Of a DNA stretch of 64,000 nucleotides, positions 2,761-11,725 are shown piece by piece (within the stretch, counting starts at the first letter, position 1; each line of letters starts with the position of its first letter). Both the position numbers and the translations under genes were made by a program. The notes under the pieces were generated by a model. It was not told the DNA's origin. It worked only from the letters and a program-made list of their open reading frames with translations, and did not search any database. This DNA is from Deltaproteobacteria bacterium (GTDB lineage Bacteria; UBA10199; JACPAL01; JACOUP01). The stretch spans positions 65,021 through 129,020 of the forward strand of contig JACOUP010000008.1 in assembly GCA_016177765.1 (NCBI GenBank), written 5' to 3'.

Positions 2761-4137
2761 CTATCTTGTAGCTAGTTTGAGTTTACTGGCAGGGTCTTCC
2801 ATCGGGACAGGATAATTTCCGGTAAAGCAGGCGTCGCAGAACCATTCTCCCGGATTTTTTTCAAACCAATAGAGCCCTTGCGGTGAAAGATACCCTAAAG
2901 AGTCGGCGTCGATGAACTTTCTAATCTCATCAACACTCTTCGAGGCGGCAATCAGTTCATCCTTGTCTGGCGTATCGATCCCATAATAGCAAGGCCCTGT
3001 CGTCGGCGGGGAGGAGATCCGCACATGAACTTCCTTGGCCCCGGCGTCACGGATCATCTTGACGATCTTGCGGGAGGTTGTCCCGCGGACGATGGAATCA
3101 TCCACCGCCACAACCCTCTTGCCTTTGAGAACCTCCCTGACCGGGTTCAATTTAATTTTGACGCCAAAGTTCCGGATCGATTCCTTCGGTTCAATAAATG
3201 TCCGGCCCACATAATGGTTCCGGATGAGTCCAAACTGAAACGGGATTCCGGACTCTTCCGCATAACCCAATGCCGCCTGAACGCCGCTGTCCGGTATCGG
3301 AATCACCACATCCGCTTTTACCGGATGCTCACGGGCCAGTTGTTGTCCGAACCCTTTCCGCATCTCATAGACATCCCGGCCAAAGATATGACTGTCCGGC
3401 CTTGCAAAATAGATGAATTCAAAAATGCACATCGCCTTTTTGCGGGGGATCACGAACGGTTTTTGGGAATGGGCACCATTCTTGTCAATCACGACAACCT
3501 CACCCGGTTCGATCTCCCGAACGAATTCCGCCTCAATCAGGTCGAGGGCACAGGTCTCACTGGCCACGACCCACGAATCCCCCTTCTGTCCCAAAACCAG
3601 TGGACGCCAGCCGTAAGGGTCCCGAACGGCGATGATCCTCGTTTCCGTCAAAAAGAGCATCGAATAGGCACCGCGAATCTGGCTTAAGGCATCGATGATC
3701 CGGTCCACGAGGGAATTCTTGGGGGACTGCGCAATCAGGTGGATCACCACCTCCGTATCCATGGTCGACTGAAAAATCGCTCCATGGGCCTCCAGTTCGG
3801 CACGAATCTTCTGGGCATTGACAAGATTCCCGTTGTGGGCAACCGCCAGCCCCCCCCGGGAATAATCGATGGCGATCGGCTGGCAATTTTTCATCATGCT
3901 CTCGCCGGTCGTTGAATAGCGGACATGCCCGATCGCATTCTTGCCGGGGAGTCTCTGCAGTGCCGCCTCGGAAAAGATATCGGCGACATGACCCATATCC
4001 TTGTGACTGTGAAGAAGTTGGCCGTCGGAGGAGATGATCCCGGCGCTCTCCTGACCGCGATGTTGAAGGGCATAAAGCCCCAGGTAGGCAAGATTTGCCG
4101 CTTCCGGATGGTTATAAATGCCGACTATGCCACACAT
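2761..4137 (-). CDS. purF: Amidophosphoribosyltransferase
   Basis: N-terminal MCGIVGI (Ntn Cys1), a GATase-2 domain plus a PRTase domain, 458 aa. Overlaps purL by 13 bp. Confidence 0.9.
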
Positions 4138-6374
4138 TTTACAAAACCCTCTTTCCAGGCCTTCTGCAATTCGGCGGTCGGAACAGTGATCCAGGGATCC
4201 AGCCTAAAAGGCCCCCGGGTCACAACACCCAATCTTTGGACAGGGCATTTCTTAAGCCTAGCCCATCGGAGAAACCGCTGCAAATTGTTTTCCCGAACAG
4301 TGACAACAATTCGGGAGGCCGCTTCACCGAATAAAAGTAGGTCGGGGCGTAAGGGCGAACGGCCGTTCGCCCGTACCTTAATATCGACCCCCCACAATTG
4401 AGGGCCTGAAATACAACACTCTGCCAAGGCCACAGCCAAGCCCCCTTCCGAACAATCATGGGCGGAACGGATCCACCCCTTTTGAATCCCTTGGAGGCAG
4501 GTCTCCTGGACCTTCTTTTCCCTCGCCAACTTTAAAGGGGGCGGCGTGCCTTGAACCTTGCCATGAACAAGACTCAAATACTCCGACCCCCCCAACTCCC
4601 CTTCAGCATTTCCCAACAGAAAAACGAGATCCCCTTCTTCCTTGAACCATTGGGTACAATGGGTTTTGACATCCTCCAGCAGGCCAACCATGCCGATTGT
4701 TGGTGTCGGATAAACAGATTGACCGAGACTTTCATTATAAAAGCTGACATTGCCGGAGACAATCGGTGTTCCCAAAAACAGGCAGGCCTCCGTAATCCCC
4801 CGGATTGCCTGCTCAAACTGCCAGAGGATTCCCGGATTTTCCGGGTTTCCAAAATTCAGGCAGTCGGTCACCGCCAACGGTTTTGCCCCGGAACAGACAA
4901 TATTACGGGCCGCCTCGGCCACCGCATGCATCGCCCCTTGATAAGGGTCAAGGTAGCAATAGGTACTGTTGCAGTCGGTGGCCATCGCCACCCCCTTGGG
5001 TGAATCACCCCTTGGTGAATCACCCTTGAGCGAATCGCTCCTTTTTGTTCCTTTGATCCGAAGAACCGCGGCATCGCTTCCCGGCAAGATCACCGTATCA
5101 GTCCCGATCATATGATCGTACTGATGATAAACCCACTCCTTGTTGGCGATATTGGGAGAGGAGAGAAGCCGGAGCAGGACAGGCGTCATCTCCGGCGGCA
5201 TGGAAATAGAATCAAGACTCAAGGAATTGACTTCGCCCAAATAAGAGGGTTTCTCCCTGGACCGTTCATAGCAGGGGGCTTCTTCAGCGATCGGGTGCGC
5301 CGGGATCTCTCCCACCAGTTCCCTTTCATTGAAAATCCGCACCGTACTCCCTCGAACTACCTTGCCGATAGCGGAAACATCCAGACCCCACTTTTTGAAA
5401 ATCTTCTCCACCCTTTTTTCAGCTCCTTTTTTGGCCACAAACAGCATCCGCTCCTGAGATTCAGAAAGCATCACCTCATAAGGGGTCATCCCCACTTCAC
5501 GGAGCGGGACTTTCGAGAGGTCCAGATCGATCCCGACATTCCCCTTGGAGGCCATTTCAAAGGAGGAACAGGTGAGGCCGGCGGCCCCCATATCCTGAAT
5601 CCCCACCAGGTCCTTCGTCTGAAAAAGTTCCAGACAGGCCTCCATTAGCCGCTTTTCGGTAAAAGGGTCTCCGACTTGAACCGTCGGCCTTTTTTCTTCC
5701 GATTTTTCGTCAAAGACATCACTGGCCATCGTCGCCCCATGGATCCCATCCCGTCCTGTCTTGGAACCAACGTAAAAGACCGGATTCCCCACCCCTGCCG
5801 CCTTGGCCTTGAAGATCCTGTTTTTCTTCACGAGTCCAACGCACATCGCATTCACAAGGTTATTCCCGTTATAGGAAGAATGAAAAGAGACCTCGCCACC
5901 CACAGTCGGAATCCCCATGCAGTTCCCATAGCCGGCGATCCCGGCCACCACCCCTTTGACCAGATATTTTGTCTTGGGGTGATTGGGGGAACCAAACCGA
6001 AGGGAGTTCAAGAGGGCGATCGGCCTGGCCCCCATCGTAAAGACATCCCGAAGGATACCGCCGACACCGGTCGCCGCCCCCTGGAACGGTTCAATAAAAG
6101 AAGGATGGTTATGGCTCTCCATCTTGAAGACAAGACCCAGACCATCCCCGATATCTACGATACCGGCGTTTTCTCCCGGTCCGCAGAGGACCTGTTTCCC
6201 TTTTGTCGGCAGTTTTTTTAAGAAAACACGGGAGCTCTTGTAGGAACAGTGCTCGCTCCACATGACCGAAAAAATTCCCAGCTCCAAAAGATTCGGTTCC
6301 CGTCCCAGAATGGTGAGAATTTTCTGGTACTCTTCCGATGAGAGGCCATGTTGCTGGACAGTTTTAGTATCCAT
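4125..6374 (-). CDS. purL: Phosphoribosylformylglycinamidine synthase subunit II
   Basis: 749 aa with AIR-synthase-related tandem domains (…HNHPS…, GxGG motifs). Carries the in-frame repeat insert [12 protein letters not shown]. Confidence 0.9.
4988..5040. repeat. Palindromic repeat copy, ~3.5 units, in purL
   Basis: cccttGGGTGaatCACCCcttGGTGaatCACCCttgaGCGaatCGCtc, in-frame, encoding [12 protein letters not shown]. Confidence 0.85.
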
Positions 6375-6419
6375 ATCTATATTCCCTCACCCTCCGAGAA
6401 TTCTTCTCTGCCTCAGCTG

Positions 6420-6443
6420 CCCTCTCCCACGATGGGGAGAGGG
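6420..6443. repeat. Perfect hairpin CCCTCTCCC-acgatg-GGGAGAGGG flanking the DUF559 cassette (purL-proximal side)
   Basis: 9-bp stem, 6-nt loop. Partner copy at 6831-6854. Confidence 0.7.
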
Positions 6444-6455
6444 CTCCAATCAAAC

Positions 6456-6818
6456 TTACATCTTGGAGCAAGTCGTCTTAATCTTTTCAAGAACTCTGGG
6501 CAGATTTGTTTCCACTTCACTATTTAAAATTCGTAAAATACGGAACCCTCCGTTTCCTAAAATTTTATCTCTCTCTTCATCGTATATTTTTTGATCTTCT
6601 TTGAGGTGATGCCCTCCATCTAATTCAACAATCAGTCTCTTTTCAACGCAACAAAAGTCAGCTATATACCCCCTTAGAGGTAGTTGACGTTTAAACTTGA
6701 GCCCTTTAAGACCACGATTACGGAGCTCGTCCCAGAGCAAACATTCGGCCCGTGTCATGTCATGTCTCAAAATTCGAGCCTTGACAACCTCCTCTCTTCT
6801 TTCAACACGATTGACCAT
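6456..6818 (-). CDS. DUF559 (Vsr-like endonuclease domain) protein; low-GC inserted cassette
   Basis: 120 aa (…CLLWDELRNRGLKGLKFKRQ…GYIADF…VELDGGHH…) typical of DUF559. The region is markedly AT-rich relative to its neighbours and is flanked by hairpins. Confidence 0.7.
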   Translation of the reverse strand: MVNRVERREEVVKARILRHDMTRAECLLWDELRNRGLKGLKFKRQLPLRGYIADFCCVEKRLIVELDGGHHLKEDQKIYDEERDKILGNGGFRILRILNSEVETNLPRVLEKIKTTCSKM

Positions 6819-6830
6819 GCCTTAATCCAA

Positions 6831-6880
6831 CCCTCTCCTCTTCGTGGGAGAGGGTGTCTCTCCGCCTCAGGCGGAGAGAC
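6831..6880. repeat. Two adjacent hairpins on the purQ-proximal side of the DUF559 cassette: CCCTCTCC-tcttcgtg-GGAGAGGG followed by GTCTCTCCGCC-tca-GGCGGAGAGAC (11-bp stem)
   Basis: The first hairpin shares its arms with the 6420-6443 hairpin. The second could also act as an intrinsic-terminator-like structure after purQ, though no U-tract follows. Confidence 0.65.
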
Positions 6881-6889
6881 GGGTGAGGG

Positions 6890-7639
6890 TTACAAAATCA
6901 CCGATTCAAACAACCGCCTCCCATCCACATTTCCCAGAAGCGGCTCGGCACACCGTTCCGGATGCGGCATCATCCCCAAGATATTCCCCTTTTCATTAAT
7001 AATGCCAGCAATTGAATCCAAAGAACCGTTCGGGTTCTCCCCTTCATAACGAAAGACAACCCTTTCTTCCCCTTTCAACCTTTTCAAGGTTTCCGGATCG
7101 CAAAAATAGTTCCCATCCCCATGGGCGATCGGCATCTTGACCACCACCCTCCCCCCCACCCCCATCCGCCCTCTCTGTCCCTTCGGGACATCTCCCCCGA
7201 TTGGCGGGGGAGTTCCCCCTCGAGGGAGGGGGATTAAGGGGGAGGGGGTGTAGAGTTTTGTAAACCGGGTATTCGTATTCTCCACCCTGAGGGAGACTGT
7301 CTTGCAAATAAATTGGAGGTTGGTGTTCCGCATCAGCACGCCGGGGAGAAGGCCCGCCTCGGTCAAGATTTGGAAACCGTTGCAGATCCCAAGAACAAGT
7401 CCACCCCTCCTGGCAAACGACAAGACCTCTTTCATGATCGGCGAAAAACGGGCAATGGCGCCGGTCCTCAAGTAATCCCCATAGGAGAAACCACCGGGGA
7501 GGATCAGACAATCCACTTTGGGGAGCCTGGTCTCCTTGTGCCATATAAAGGAGGCTGGCTGTTCCAGAAGGTCATGAATGGCATGGAAGCAGTCGTGATC
7601 ACAATTGGAACCGGGAAAGACGACGACACCAAATTTCAT
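6890..7639 (-). CDS. purQ: Phosphoribosylformylglycinamidine synthase subunit I (glutaminase); contains a ~30-aa in-frame palindromic insertion
   Basis: [17 protein letters not shown]…, catalytic Cys GICNGFQ, and HGEG-like PIAHGDGNY. An extra segment [36 protein letters not shown] lies between the conserved FTK and MPIAHG blocks. Confidence 0.85.
7141..7250. repeat. GC-rich cluster of mini-palindromes inserted in-frame within purQ
   Basis: Contains GTCCCttcGGGAC, CCCCCGattgGCGGGGG, CCCTCGAGGG (a perfect 10-bp palindrome) and AGGGGGattaAGGGGGAGGGGG. This is a different family from the 15-bp repeat. Confidence 0.6.
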
Positions 7640-7875
7640 ACGATCTCAAACCTGTATGATTCAATCACCGTATTGGCGAGCAGTTTTTCACACATTTCTT
7701 TTACCCGCCGCTCCGCTTCTTCTTTATCTTCGGTGGTCAACTTCAGCTCGACATATTTGCCGATCCGGACATCCCGGACCTCCTCAAAGCGGAGGCTCGC
7801 CAGCGCCTGACAAACCGCCTTCCCCTGGGGGTCCAACACGCCTGATTTTAGAGTGATATAGATTTTTGCCGTCAT
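7636..7875 (-). CDS. purS: Phosphoribosylformylglycinamidine synthase subunit PurS
   Basis: 79 aa in a conserved position between purB and purQ, with 4-bp overlaps on both sides. Confidence 0.8.
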
Positions 7876-9167
7876 TTCTCAAAAACCCTCCTAAAAATAA
7901 AATCGACTTCTCTCAAGTGATGTTTCAGATTAAACGCCTTCTTGATGACCTCCGGCTTAAGGTGCCGGGCCACTTCTTTATCTTGCAAGAGTTCTCGCTG
8001 AAAATCGGCCCCTTTTTCCCAAACTCTCATCGCATTTCGCTGAACCAGTTCGTACGCCTTCTCGCGTGTCAGCCCCGCCCTGACAAGCTCCAAAAGGACC
8101 GATTCGGAATAGACAAGACCTCCCATTTTCTCCAAATTTTTCTTCATATTTTCAGGATAGACCACAAGCCCTTCAATCAGTTTCGTCAAACGAACCAGCA
8201 TATAATCCATCAAAATAGTGGCGTCGGGGCCAATCACCCTCTCCACCGAAGAATGACTGATGTCCCGTTCATGCCAAAGGGCCACATTCTCCATCGCCGC
8301 CATCGCATAGGAGCGGACCAGACGGGCCAGCCCACAAAGATTTTCAGCGCTGACCGGATTTCTCTTGTGCGGCATTGCCGAAGAACCCTTCTGCCCCTTG
8401 GTAAAGGCCTCTTCCGCCTCAAGGAGTTCGGTTCGTTGAAGGTGTCTTAACTCCGTGGCAATCCGCTCAATGGAAGAAGCGGTGATGGCCAAGCGACAGA
8501 AAAATACGGCGTAGCGATCCCTCGGGATCACCTGAGTTGCAACCGGTTCCGGTCGAAGCCCCAGCTTTTCACAAACATACTTTTCCACAAACGGGTCTCC
8601 GTTGGCATAGGTCCCGACCGCCCCGGAAAGCTTGCCATAACCGATCTCTCCTTCAGCCAGATCCAAACGGGTCAGTGCTCGCTTCATCTCTTCATACCAA
8701 CCGATGAGTTTCAGACCAAAGGTGATCGGTTCGGCATGGATGCCATGGGTCCGCCCAATCATCGGGGTCATCTTGTGATCCAACGCCCTCTTGCGAATTA
8801 CTCCCAAAAGGGCCTCCAAATCTTTTTTGAGGAGGGACGAGGCCTCTTTCAGTTGAAGAGAAAAACAGGTATCTACGATATCCGATGAAGTGAGTCCGAT
8901 GTGGAGGTAGCGAGCCTCCGGGCCGATATTCTCGGCCACGTTGGTCAGGAAGGCAATGACGTCATGTTTGACCTCCGCCTCGATCGCATCAATCCGGACA
9001 ATATCGAATTTTGCCTTTTTACGGATCGTCTGGATCGCCTCCGGGGGGACCAGCCCCTTCTTGGACCAGGCCTCCGCCGCCAGGATCTCAATTTCCAACC
9101 ATTTCGCGAACTTGCTCTCCGGCTCCCAAACGGAGGCGATCTCGGGTCGGCTGTAACGGGGTATCAT
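7872..9167 (-). CDS. purB: Adenylosuccinate lyase
   Basis: MIPRYSRPEIASVWEPESKFAKWLEIEILA… and a fumarase/lyase signature. The start is set at the internal ATG 9167; the tracked ORF is extended upstream. Confidence 0.9.
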   Translation of the reverse strand: MIPRYSRPEIASVWEPESKFAKWLEIEILAAEAWSKKGLVPPEAIQTIRKKAKFDIVRIDAIEAEVKHDVIAFLTNVAENIGPEARYLHIGLTSSDIVDTCFSLQLKEASSLLKKDLEALLGVIRKRALDHKMTPMIGRTHGIHAEPITFGLKLIGWYEEMKRALTRLDLAEGEIGYGKLSGAVGTYANGDPFVEKYVCEKLGLRPEPVATQVIPRDRYAVFFCRLAITASSIERIATELRHLQRTELLEAEEAFTKGQKGSSAMPHKRNPVSAENLCGLARLVRSYAMAAMENVALWHERDISHSSVERVIGPDATILMDYMLVRLTKLIEGLVVYPENMKKNLEKMGGLVYSESVLLELVRAGLTREKAYELVQRNAMRVWEKGADFQRELLQDKEVARHLKPEVIKKAFNLKHHLREVDFIFRRVFEK

Positions 9168-9271
9168 GGAGGCCCGCATCCCTAACAAAAAAAGGGGGTT
9201 GGTGCAAGGATGAAAAAAAGAAAGCAACTCTCTGAAAAGACTGACGAAAATATGTTCACAAAGGAGTCCTA

Positions 9272-10366
9272 ATGGCCCATGATACAATACCCCCGCCGGC
9301 AGGTGAAGCACCCTTGGGTGAAGCACCCTTCCCTTATATTGTTGTCGAACCGGATGCGGCCGATGGTCTGGAAGATCAGCTGGACGGCTCCGATATTCCG
9401 ATTAGCGAGGCGATTGAGGGGGATAATTACAAAATGGATCGGAAGACAACCCGGGCCTTTCAAGACGACGAGGAGGCGTCCGCCTATGAATCCGATCTTT
9501 TTCCCAACGACCGGGCGATTACCCTGACGGAACTCCGGCGCGCCTTTTACGCCACCTACGGGACTCAGGAATCCCGGGCCGTGGCTGAGCGCGTCTTCGC
9601 CCAGATGAAACAAGAGCTTGGTGATACAGTCAGTAAAGATGAAATTGGCCGTTTTCAACAGATCCTGACCGATCAGTCTGCTCATCTCGACGCCGGTGGA
9701 ATCATCATTGATAACGATCTTGATAAAGGGGGAAGACTCGCGATCTCCGTAAAAAGACAGGGTCTCACCAAAGAGGATATTCAGAGACGGATCATCCCTT
9801 ATGACACCTGGAAATATATGAAAGACCTCGAGTTGACTTTTGACGTCCCGGTACCCGAAGAGCCGAATGCCTATTATGAATTTACCATCACCCATCCGGG
9901 CGGCGTCGCCGGAAAGGTCTTTGGGATCTTTCCCGCCGTAACCAAGATCACCCTGGCGGGGGGAAACGGTCCTCTCGTTGCCAAGTGGGAGATGGTTCCT
10001 CATGACACGGCAAGAGGATTAGTGGATCAGTATAAGGGGAGGTTGACAGAAGTGATGCGGGAGGCCCGTTTAAAAGACAATCCGGATGAATACGCAAACC
10101 AGTTTAAGGAAGAACTGGAGTCCGTCCGGAGTGTTCAGGGAAGTGTCCGCTACGACCCCCAGACAGGGGTTCTGACCTATGAACAAAACGTGAAGGTCTC
10201 CTGGTCCCCCCCTTCCGACAGTTTCGTCATTGAGCCTCTCTTAACCGTCGCCCTTCATTATGCCGGTGACCCACGGGCCAAGAAAAGAACCAAAATCCCC
10301 TGCTGGATGAGTGAAGATGACGGCCCAATGAAAAAGAAATACCGCTACGAGCCGGCCCTGAAATAA
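9272..10366 (+). CDS. Hypothetical protein; N-terminus carries the repeat-encoded GEAPLGEAP
   Basis: 364-aa ORF with a good SD (aaggag, 7 nt upstream). No recognisable family. Confidence 0.5.
   Translation: MAHDTIPPPAGEAPLGEAPFPYIVVEPDAADGLEDQLDGSDIPISEAIEGDNYKMDRKTTRAFQDDEEASAYESDLFPNDRAITLTELRRAFYATYGTQESRAVAERVFAQMKQELGDTVSKDEIGRFQQILTDQSAHLDAGGIIIDNDLDKGGRLAISVKRQGLTKEDIQRRIIPYDTWKYMKDLELTFDVPVPEEPNAYYEFTITHPGGVAGKVFGIFPAVTKITLAGGNGPLVAKWEMVPHDTARGLVDQYKGRLTEVMREARLKDNPDEYANQFKEELESVRSVQGSVRYDPQTGVLTYEQNVKVSWSPPSDSFVIEPLLTVALHYAGDPRAKKRTKIPCWMSEDDGPMKKKYRYEPALK
9302..9330. repeat. Palindromic repeat copy, 2 units (GGTGaagCACCCttGGGTGaagCACCC)
   Basis: In-frame at the N-terminus of 9272..10366, encoding GEAPLGEAP. 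Opposite orientation relative to the coding strand. Confidence 0.8.
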
Positions 10367-10372
10367 CCAAAT

Positions 10373-11725
10373 CTACCGCGGCGCCTCGGGCCAATAGTGA
10401 CCGAGAAACTCGTTTTTGACCTGATCAAAAGACTGCCCGTGGAAGGCCAGGTACTCCTCGGTCATGTGGCTTAATTCTCGAATCCGGTAAGAAAGGGAAA
10501 CCGCCCTCTGGTTGGTCTCCTTCCATTCCCCCTCTTCCGTTTTAATCCGGTCGTTTTCCGTTGTGTGAAGGGTCCCCAGTCCAAAGAGGTTGACGGAGAC
10601 ATACTCCTGACAAATGTTACTTTCTTTTTCATCCCAGTGGACGCAATGGGCCACGGAATCTTGCGCCAGGTGAAGGGCGGCCGCAAGCCGCATCTGGCGG
10701 ATCGCCTCCCAAGGCCCCTTGCCGGAGGCCAAACGATCCCACTGGTCTTCATGAAGATACCTCAAAACGTTCCGGTAATGGGCCACTCCCATCTCAAAGG
10801 CCCCTTCAACCCCCCTCTCCGCATCCACAAAATTATTCAGCGCCCCCCTGATATGAGCGGCAAGATCACTGTAAGAACGCATCAAGACCTCAAGAACCTC
10901 ACGGTTAGGATAATCGTCGGCATCATTACCGGGAAAGACAACATTTCTCATCTGGGCATACATCATCAAAGATCTCAATTTTTTGATCCCCCGAACAACC
11001 TCCTCCAGACGATTAGCAACCAACGCCTCTTTCATATCGGTGATCTGTGAAAGAATGCCGTTTAAGGGCTCATTGTCAGAAAAAGCCGGATGGGCCTTTT
11101 GCAGTTCCTCCCCCAATCGATGAATTTCAGTGAGATGATGACCCATCGCTCCCCGAATCCTGGTCCGTGTCTCCGCCATCCCCTGGAGCTTGACGCACCC
11201 TTTATCATCAACAACAACCGGCCTGACAGCATGCCTTTCGTTGAGTTCGGCACTGCCAAACTGGCTCCCGATCAGGCTGACATAATTGGCATGAATCAAG
11301 GGGGGAAAATCGCGGTAAGATACCTCTTTTCGGATAAGATCAACAAATTTGGGCTCTTCCGAGGAATAAAGACTTAGAGCCCCCCAAGGGAGAAGATAGG
11401 CGATATGGGTAATCAAGGAGTGCGCATCCTCCTCGGAACCAACCCTCTCCTGGTTAATCGTCAGGCTGGGGGGAAGACCCAAGAAAAGGAAACGGGAGAA
11501 TCCGGCAAGGACCCACGGCCCCTCTTCAAGCTGTGGCAGGTAACTCCGTTCCCAAAACCCCTGATCCCTCAGCTCCGGGACAAGGAGATCAACGACAATA
11601 TCGTTGTCTTCCTGAAAGCAAACCTCGAGGTTGGCCTCCGGCATCTTGAAACAGAGCCCGGAGGCGACAAGAAGCCCGGTATTGTCTGCATAATGATCAA
11701 AAACAATCGAGTTTTCTGCCAACAT
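10373..11725 (-). CDS. Hypothetical protein, paralog A of a tandem pair (possible His/Asp metal-hydrolase, PLC/P1-nuclease-like motifs)
   Basis: 450 aa. Shares N-terminal (LCFxMxE…VLDLL…W.RSY.P.LE.G.W) and C-terminal (AAA.HLAQD.VAHC) blocks with 11786..13174. Confidence 0.55.
   Translation of the reverse strand: MLAENSIVFDHYADNTGLLVASGLCFKMPEANLEVCFQEDNDIVVDLLVPELRDQGFWERSYLPQLEEGPWVLAGFSRFLFLGLPPSLTINQERVGSEEDAHSLITHIAYLLPWGALSLYSSEEPKFVDLIRKEVSYRDFPPLIHANYVSLIGSQFGSAELNERHAVRPVVVDDKGCVKLQGMAETRTRIRGAMGHHLTEIHRLGEELQKAHPAFSDNEPLNGILSQITDMKEALVANRLEEVVRGIKKLRSLMMYAQMRNVVFPGNDADDYPNREVLEVLMRSYSDLAAHIRGALNNFVDAERGVEGAFEMGVAHYRNVLRYLHEDQWDRLASGKGPWEAIRQMRLAAALHLAQDSVAHCVHWDEKESNICQEYVSVNLFGLGTLHTTENDRIKTEEGEWKETNQRAVSLSYRIRELSHMTEEYLAFHGQSFDQVKNEFLGHYWPEAPR

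Follow-up and report, generated by a model that had tools for sequence, protein, structure and literature searches.

A predicted DUF559 nuclease gene nested within an inverted pair of triplex-motif repeats in the pur operon of an uncultured deltaproteobacterium

How does a gap of 515 nt come to lie within an operon whose genes otherwise overlap, and what is the gene that it holds? The question is raised by a 64-kb stretch of DNA (the window) from the metagenome-assembled genome of an uncultured Deltaproteobacteria bacterium, in which purB (7872-9326), purS (7636-7875), purQ (6890-7639), purL (4125-6374) and purF (2761-4137) follow one another on the minus strand. Neighbouring genes overlap by 4 nt (purB/purS and purS/purQ) or 13 nt (purL/purF), except at the purQ/purL junction, where 6375-6889 separates the purQ stop codon (at 6890) from the purL ATG (at 6374). 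A first, sequence-only reading had pointed to this single gap, to a 120-aa DUF559 gene lying in it and to hairpins on both sides, and had proposed that the gene was no ancestral member of the operon but part of a small cassette, selfish or mobile, or of an insertion bounded by hairpins; its coordinates for the overlaps and the gap are confirmed here. We find that the 506 nt at 6384-6889 are a compact module whose insertion is specific to this lineage. In the module the DUF559 gene is nested within an inverted pair of repeats that, judged by their sequence, belong to the BoxC / PIT / 'intrastrand triplex motif' (TM) family, and the same pairing of gene and repeat recurs widely among bacteria.

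On the transcribed strand the module follows the purQ TAA as a C-rich tail, hairpin B, hairpin A, the DUF559 gene, a second hairpin A (A'), a degenerate spacer and a G-rich tail, after which 9 nt lead to the purL ATG. The intact gene (6456-6818, minus strand) is closely bracketed by the two A hairpins, ACCCTCTCC-TCTTCGTG-GGAGAGGGT on the purQ side (6830-6855), 12 nt 5' of its ATG, and GCCCTCTCCC-ACGATG-GGGAGAGGGC on the purL side (6419-6444), 11 nt 3' of its stop codon. The matching hairpins that had been noticed at 6420-6443 and 6831-6854 are both present and are the only two sites in 64 kb for the pattern CCCTCTCC-N2-14-GGAGAGGG, against 0.01 expected; their loops agree better inverted (22/24) than direct (17/24). 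The extra hairpin that had been described with an 11-bp stem (hairpin B, 6856-6880, GTCTCTCCGCC-TCA-GGCGGAGAGAC) is there too, with a 3-nt loop, and acts as a spacer between hairpin A and the tail on the purQ side. The spacer of the purL-side arm (6393-6418) is degenerate and holds TCTCTGCCTCAG (6405-6416), which matches half of hairpin B as a direct repeat.

Two features of the flanks had escaped the sequence-only reading. The outer ends of the arms, CCCTCACCC at 6384-6392 (GGGTGAGGG on the mRNA) and GGGTGAGGG at 6881-6889 (CCCTCACCC on the transcribed strand), form an inverted pair whose members are the sole two copies in the window, the second of them directly adjoining the purQ stop codon (TAA, minus strand, 6890-6892). 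Taken together, the flanks form an imperfect terminal inverted repeat of ~60 nt, scoring 50 as compared to 15.8 +/- 3.2 for shuffled sequences, with 0 of 2000 shuffles reaching an equal score. The purQ-side arm is predicted to fold at -39.7 kcal/mol as RNA (z = -5.1) and at -22.2 as DNA (z = -5.5), and no Rfam match at gathering threshold was found across the whole window. On the transcript, GGAGGGTGAGGG ends 9 nt 5' of the purL ATG, and the predicted fold leaves it single-stranded, which makes it a plausible candidate for the Shine-Dalgarno sequence of purL.

Composition and synteny both support an origin outside the operon. The DUF559 gene, described from its letters as AT-rich, has a GC content of 0.405 versus 0.535 for the window, and its GC at third codon positions is 0.364 versus 0.60-0.63 for the five pur genes. 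A PurL search retrieved the four nearest relatives (78, 72, 70 and 67% PurL identity). Their gene order is purB-purS-purQ-purL(-purF), purQ and purL adjoin each other, separated by 2 and 5 nt in two of them and overlapping by 8 and 4 nt in the other two, and neither DUF559 nor the repeat is present at the junction in any of the four. DUF559 is likewise absent from the purQ/purL junction in 80 more distant loci (best PurQ identity 58%). Since purQ and purL abut without a cassette in the closest relatives, the insertion is lineage-specific, and the first reading's view of a non-ancestral cassette stands. The junction sequences, …TTTTGTAA/CCCTCACCC … GGGTGAGGG/AATATAGATATG, place the start of the element directly after the purQ stop. 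All eight population contigs with the exact PurL carry the cassette, and no cassette-free allele was found among them; a look-up of the exact PurQ sequence gave no record. Although terminal inverted repeats are present, the cassette protein matches no transposase family in the Pfam and NCBIfam profiles.

The repeats of the cassette have a long history of their own. BoxC of E. coli was renamed the PIT element (Hoyne & Maher 2000, 2002) and then TM, according to the account given by Holder et al. 2015 (PMC4666352). A TM unit combines a hairpin, CCCTCTCCC-loop-GGGAGAGGG, with a G-rich mirror segment that comes after it, TTA-GGGTGAGGG. Holder et al. (2015, PMC4666352) count 23 units in E. coli K-12, distributed over 18 loci and including five inverted doublets; they record the motif in more than 260 genomes and connect it with local rearrangements of the genome. 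G/C-rich hairpins with a pyrimidine 5' arm and a purine 3' arm lie in the window at 6419-6444, 6830-6855, 723-745, 7192-7212 and 7214-7233, and are of the same type as the TM_ECO entries in Table 1 of PMC4666352. The tail at 6881-6889 would be the mirror 'third-strand' segment of such a unit: GGGTGAGGG fits the mirror rule relative to the purine arm GGGAGAGGG, a rule that we computed for the family. The cassette shares with the BoxC/PIT/TM repeats (Bachellier 1990s; Hoyne & Maher; Holder et al. 2015) the pyrimidine arm, loop, purine arm and G-rich mirror tail and the identical consensus (CCCTCTCCC...GGGAGAGGG...GGGTGAGGG), together with a habit of intergenic singlets and inverted doublets. It differs in that the mirror tail, present on both arms, stands 26-27 nt away from the hairpin rather than 1-6 nt, with a second hairpin between them on one side, in that the tails face outward, and in that the repeats bracket a nuclease gene, whereas the literature on these repeats knows no associated gene. 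The terms endonuclease, DUF559, Vsr and ycjD are absent from Holder et al. (PMC4666352).

What does the gene encode? Its product scores 119.1 bits on Pfam PF04480 (DUF559, YcjD-type), for which the curated cutoff is 20.6, with E=1e-34 and a match that covers positions 5-108 of the 109 in the profile, bearing out the family assignment of the 120-aa gene, and D54, E65, D67 and H71, invariant across the homolog alignment including the window protein, form a putative catalytic D...ExD...H set. The protein is 43% identical to E. coli YcjD and matches the structure of Neisseria gonorrhoeae NGO0050 (PDB 3HRL) at E=4e-19. With 73.5 bits it stays below the cutoff of 218 for the YcjD equivalog NCBIfam PRK09767, and by this profile it is a family relative rather than an ortholog of YcjD. 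An AlphaFold model (pLDDT 86) gave Foldseek matches, in this order, to 3HRL, the catalytic domain of I-Bth0305I, PvuRts1I and E. coli Vsr, and the family profile reaches the homing endonuclease I-Bth0305I (3R3P) at E=3e-5 on sequence alone, and also PvuRts1I. The DUF559 protein is therefore predicted to be a PD-(D/E)XK nuclease of the Vsr fold. Three side observations concern its homologs. Some (P0008, P0089) carry the JGI label 'lysyl-tRNA synthetase class 2', probably an annotation error; the open reading frames (ORFs) of many are lengthened at the C terminus because the frame runs on through the TM hairpin, giving tails like PLPSGERGR and SLSPSGRGLG; and Foldseek matched the DUF559 model to apicomplexan and ciliate mitoribosomal large-subunit proteins (9I05, 9G6K and 6Z1P chains, probability 0.8-0.99), which suggests that DUF559-like domains were recruited into mitoribosomes.

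This fold invites one account of the gap, a solitary repair or restriction nuclease of the Vsr type, an ordinary accessory gene whose hairpins are its own regulatory, mRNA-stabilising, attenuator or terminator elements. The model shares its fold with Vsr (1VSR, 1CW0; Foldseek probability 0.93-0.96), many homologs are named 'very-short-patch-repair endonuclease' by JGI, weak PADLOC hits lead to a methyl-directed restriction enzyme, and one cyanobacterial copy, on a plasmid of Synechocystis sp. B12 (L184 1393-3297), lies directly 5' of the gene for a BREX PglX methyltransferase. Against this, the Pfam hits are DUF559 and MTES_1575 only, with no match to the Vsr family profile; the window gene has purQ and purL as its neighbours and no dcm-type or other cytosine methyltransferase beside it; and PADLOC gave no meaningful match to a defence system. 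There is no T-run after the hairpins, no intrinsic terminator is predicted within 6375-6889, so that we dropped a terminator reading of the gap hairpins, and in E. coli PIT elements had neither promoter nor terminator activity (Hoyne & Maher 2002, as reported in PMC4666352). The same repeats, moreover, exist in many copies without a gene. We therefore consider a solitary nuclease with private hairpins highly improbable.

The association of gene and repeat turned out to be a property of the family. We took a metagenomic sample of 80 DUF559 loci, 42-54% identical to the window protein, and compared the 8-mers in the flanks of the gene (-200/+250 nt) with those in the remainder of each locus in an unsupervised manner. 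The top flank words were all TM words (CCCTCCCC/GGGGAGGG, 64 versus 8; CTCACCCC/GGGGTGAG, 44 versus 9; ACCCTCCC, 30 versus 1), and TM words were enriched 20- to 110-fold near DUF559 genes. Within -250/+300 nt of a DUF559 gene, the density of G/C-rich hairpins with a pyrimidine arm is 3.7 per kb; it falls to 0.143 per kb elsewhere in the same loci and to 0.028 per kb in unrelated bacterial DNA (633 kb scanned), an enrichment beside DUF559 of about 130-fold over unrelated DNA. The hairpins were found in 58 of the 70 loci for which both flanks were available, and on both sides in 36. A common genome-wide terminator motif unrelated to the cassette had been named as one finding that would undo the cassette reading; the hairpins do belong to a widespread family, but their DUF559-specific enrichment and missing T-run strengthen that reading rather than refute it.

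Within each locus the repeats are also matched to one another. The tail mirrors its own stem better than other stems (0.90 versus 0.79; own better in 131 of 147 units), and the two flanks of one gene carry the same stem variant in 20/41 loci, as compared to 6.6% between loci. In most loci the tails point to the gene (89 versus 28), which is the geometry of the gene-less E. coli doublets, and the upstream and downstream loops are exact reverse complements in 13/41 loci against 8 direct, an inverted relation that is frequent but not universal because units alternate in orientation. Where stems are mismatched, T:G occurs 5 times and C:A once, and with 97% of pairs Watson-Crick these cases are too few to separate RNA- from DNA-level structure. 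Of the stem mismatches, 23/42 (in L088-L167) belong to a single class, a T facing C (on the opposite strand, a G facing A), which is the CCCTCGCCC / GGGAGAGGG asymmetry of the commonest E. coli TM type ('type mm'); a fixed stem mismatch may be of interest beside a Vsr-like, mismatch-nicking fold. We also looked at the protein, whose identity follows stem type only weakly (55.4% versus 51.2%); this difference is permutation-significant, small and confounded by shared ancestry, so that co-evolution of protein and stem is not used as evidence here and does not help the case for a functional tie.

The pairing extends well beyond metagenomes. In a PLSDB sample, TM units stood beside the DUF559 gene in all ten named genera (Deinococcus, Azospirillum, Sinorhizobium, Neisseria, Synechocystis, Picosynechococcus, Sphingomonas, Pseudanabaena, Methylobacterium and Photobacterium), which span Deinococcota, Alpha-, Beta- and Gammaproteobacteria and Cyanobacteria, and overall the pairing spans at least five bacterial phyla. 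TM hairpins were present at 3/4 viral DUF559 loci; as these four loci were the only viral ones, a phage origin was rejected. The TM-flanked DUF559 gene of N. gonorrhoeae is the source of the 3HRL crystal structure. In E. coli K-12 a degenerate hairpin forms the end of the ycjD ORF, and the spacer between ycjD and fabI contains a perfect TM unit; the ycjD+TM segment is present in 3378/5426 complete E. coli genomes and missing as a whole in the others, which have a TM-free eef efflux island instead (cf. PMC12817139). YcjD (b1289) and NGO0050 are thus relatives of the window protein that are TM-adjacent in their own genomes, although the genomic site is another, only the downstream unit is intact in E. 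coli, and neither has an assigned function. A full-text search of open-access papers and bioRxiv returned no paper linking DUF559 to TM repeats; the components (DUF559, BoxC/PIT/TM) are known, and the link between them seems new.

Several of these loci have peculiarities of their own. In E. coli K-12 (L168 5290-5420), a diverged second copy of the last ~45 nt of ycjD (GGAGACGGTGCTGGAGAATATTC...CTGAACCG) lies ~60 nt past its stop codon; GGGTTAGGGG comes next and the perfect TM unit after it, an arrangement that suggests a past duplication or gene conversion. Arrays of TM units directly 3' of the DUF559 gene are found in Photobacterium sp. GJ3 (L189 1860-3290; 14 units) and N. gonorrhoeae (L183 1990-2700; 6 or more units), both with two alternating unit types.

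Gene and repeats also behave as a discrete unit. One metagenomic locus (L145) is ~90% identical in nucleotide sequence to two others (L137 and L122) over ~454 nt. The upstream and downstream hairpins mark the limits of this shared block, its start falling exactly on the former, and the upstream flank of L145 is unrelated. Between loci whose genes agree at only ~75%, repeat units of 42-46 nt reach 91-97% identity. Gene-less copies are far commoner than the gene: the doublet adjoining the Sinorhizobium gene has 759 matches in 146 Rhizobiaceae replicons, with up to 31 per record, while DUF559 occurs in only 1-2 places per replicon. The outward-facing arrangement of the window is shared by its nearest DUF559 relatives (51-58% identity), in which the tail is outermost and a spacer hairpin separates it from the hairpin; the complete hairpin/spacer-hairpin/tail layout recurs in two of the relatives (L190 and L191), and in L190 and L194 the element directly follows the TAA stop of a co-oriented upstream gene with the C-rich tail outermost, as it does in the window.

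The window itself contains gene-less repeats, making four TM sites in 64 kb, one of them within a coding region. This latter site is a TM doublet lying in frame in purQ (7141-7248), composed of a C-rich tail, a hairpin (7214-7233), a second hairpin (7192-7212), a mini-hairpin and a G-rich tail. Its tails are outermost, as in the DUF559 cassette, and it adds about 31 residues to PurQ. The doublet is common to the window and the closest relative (L177, GCA_030649435.1) and absent from L176, L178 and L179; as L177 is cassette-free, the doublet predates the cassette. In the two genomes its interior lies in opposite orientations (58/69 positions identical when inverted; score 33.5 versus 3.5 direct), each of them in frame. 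Rickettsia palindromic elements are in-frame palindromic insertions in protein-coding genes, and the purQ doublet resembles them in leaving a housekeeping gene intact; it differs in repeat family and host, and in the inversion of its interior between two lineages. Four Logan contigs (L001, L002, L005 and L006), independent assemblies of the same organism, begin at window position 7214, between the two purQ hairpins, a recurrent break that is probably an assembly-graph effect of the palindromes.

An older doublet raises the question of whether the gene arrived later than its repeats. TM doublets might spread by other means, with DUF559 as a free-standing homing endonuclease that cuts gene-less doublets and is copied into their centre by double-strand-break repair, the repeat arms serving as homology. 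The DUF559 gene is always central in its inverted TM pair, and gene-less doublets of the same polarity exist, in the window within purQ, and in E. coli, where the tails face inward as they do at canonical DUF559 loci; the purQ doublet, predating the cassette, indicates that doublets were inserted alone in this lineage. The purQ/purL site is uninterrupted in close relatives, as is typical of homing targets, and in at least two E. coli lineages the eef island was replaced by ycjD (PMC12817139). Both fold and profile resemble I-Bth0305I, a related catalytic domain (Foldseek E=3e-4) in what is likewise a selfish-looking insertion in a conserved gene array, although that enzyme is encoded in a phage intron and has an extra DNA-binding region, whereas the window gene is free-standing, chromosomal, 120 aa long and flanked by repeats. 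On the other hand, no relative has a TM doublet at the purQ/purL junction, so that a two-step history must be assumed, and the stems of the purQ doublet are unlike the cassette arms and would offer poor homology. An actively homing gene with so many targets would not be expected at a mere one or two places per replicon, nor would it be so rare in viral contigs, the usual home of free-standing homing endonucleases. We regard homing into pre-existing doublets as rather unlikely, with perhaps one chance among several.

A further possibility is that DUF559 has no part in the spread of TM repeats, being either hitch-hiking cargo or a host structure-specific nuclease that limits damage at these sites. 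TM loci are described as rearrangement hotspots in E. coli in the account of PMC4666352, and the loci studied here bear traces of such events. In Sinorhizobium meliloti Ak57 (L196 1201-1656), compared with Sinorhizobium sp. K101 (L182), the dsbA-smc spacer keeps the first ~145 nt of the DUF559 ORF, and a 345-nt deletion, whose right end lies inside the second TM hairpin, has taken the remaining two thirds; the interior of the purQ doublet has been inverted between lineages. DUF559 proteins are 14-fold enriched among predicted inversion targets in an uncommented table of Milman et al. 2023 (PMC9881135), the closest hint of the DUF559-TM link that we met in print, whose list of inversion-prone genes includes both DUF559 and PglX-type proteins, and Vsr, the best-studied relative, is a repair enzyme. 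Yet hitch-hiking would leave unexplained why one protein family accompanies TM repeats across phyla at such an enrichment, why the flanks are matched, and why all four subfamily members examined have a gene richer in A+T than the DNA around it. A guardian gene need not sit within a repeat pair, and a foreign composition fits a mobile element better than a host repair gene. A passive or protective role is, in our judgement, improbable.

We instead favour, as the best explanation overall and a reasonably probable one, a module of nuclease plus repeat that resembles the REPIN/RAYT systems, with the DUF559 nuclease gene nested in an inverted TM pair. Its descriptive part, namely that a foreign nuclease gene in an inverted TM pair was inserted after purQ, that gene and repeat are paired family-wide and that gene-less units are far commoner, is something we hold with high confidence. 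The closest working analogue is REP/REPIN-RAYT ('REPtrons'; Nunvar et al. 2010, PMC2817692; Bertels & Rainey 2011, PMC3116915), in which, too, a low-copy nuclease gene lies between inverted copies of a short structured palindromic repeat, the gene-less repeat occurs in far more copies as singlets, inverted doublets and arrays, and the repeat varies by lineage and yet matches on both sides of each gene. Unlike RAYTs, the DUF559 protein is Vsr-like, of the PD-(D/E)XK type and about 120 aa long, rather than an HUH/Y1 (IS200-like) transposase, and its repeat has a third, mirror-symmetric G-rich segment, the triplex motif. The tie between protein and repeat is in our case a genomic association, and some DUF559 modules are foreign in composition and found in differing contexts, whereas RAYTs are mostly inherited vertically.

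How might such a module work? It entered directly after the purQ stop codon. Because the scan of 5900-7400 predicted no promoter on the minus strand, the strand of the gene, DUF559 is probably expressed by read-through of the pur operon, and the terminal G-rich tail may supply the purL ribosome-binding sequence displaced by the insertion, which would allow the operon to tolerate it. In the scheme that we propose, the nuclease would recognise or cleave the TM repeat in its structured form, whether hairpin or triplex, on DNA that is single-stranded or supercoiled. Repair or recombination by the host would then copy TM-bounded segments, so that gene-carrying modules would relate to gene-less TM singlets and doublets as RAYT genes do to REPINs. 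This mechanism, with the nuclease working on the folded repeat and the repair machinery of the host copying or rearranging the DNA between TM units, we put forward tentatively, as possible but short of probable. Slightly more cautiously still, it is tempting to speculate that DUF559 (YcjD-type) proteins are the missing trans-acting TM nucleases, which recognise the DNA structure of hairpin or triplex and drive spread, inversion and deletion of TM-bounded DNA.

A number of observations weigh against so active a role. We found no demonstrated activity for any DUF559 protein in the literature, and to our knowledge a 120-aa PD-(D/E)XK nuclease has no strand-transfer chemistry, so that any mobility must rely on host repair. 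A target-site duplication amounts to 'AA' at most and is unconvincing. The exact DUF559 protein is known from one locus only and the next homolog is 61% identical, so this copy gives no sign of recent movement. Nor did a comparison of E. coli and S. meliloti alleles yield a clean pair of filled and empty sites: the candidate empty site in E. coli was rejected, its alternative allele being the TM-free eef island and not an empty one, and that in S. meliloti proved to be the deletion remnant of a DUF559 gene. The stems at the TM sites of the window differ (CCCTCTCC, TCCCCCTC/CTCCCCCG and TCCCCTCCC) and do not obviously form one cognate set. Holder et al. (PMC4666352) report TM units across E. 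coli strains, and as E. coli lineages without ycjD exist, persistence of TM needs no ycjD. The same paper found no mobility function near TM repeats, and by its account Hoyne & Maher had sought mobility or regulatory roles of PIT elements and found none.

Two more regions of the window deserve mention. A canonical single TM unit, TCCCCTCCC-TTGAT-GGGAGGGGA-TAG-AGGGGAGGGTG, lies on the minus strand at 709-745, with 3 nt looping from its hairpin to its tail. It fills the 47-nt spacer between an Fe-ADH gene (753-1946) and the next ORF (304-711), and its G-rich tail, AGGGGAGGGTG, stands just 5' of the start of that ORF, like the tail before purL. On the other side of the operon, 5' of purB on the minus strand, 9269-10003 and 10373-11725 are ORFs of 244 and 450 aa without a Pfam match.

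For the organism studied here, the window indicates that a module of this kind can live in a translationally coupled essential operon, that its G-rich end may replace the ribosome-binding site of the next gene, and that a TM doublet can persist and invert in frame inside a housekeeping enzyme. For the two families the implications are wider. TM repeats came to notice in the 1990s and have a place in hundreds of genomes, where instability has been connected with them, but they have been without an assigned enzyme, origin or spreading mechanism; DUF559 is among the most widespread bacterial domains of unknown function, with a structure in 3HRL and with the uncharacterised ycjD of E. coli K-12 as a member. 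The link between them offers a candidate enzyme for the repeats and makes both problems testable in model organisms. If our proposal is true, these modules would represent a second, independently evolved partnership of the REPIN-RAYT kind, built on a PD-(D/E)XK scaffold and present in bacteria that include E. coli K-12 and Neisseria gonorrhoeae.

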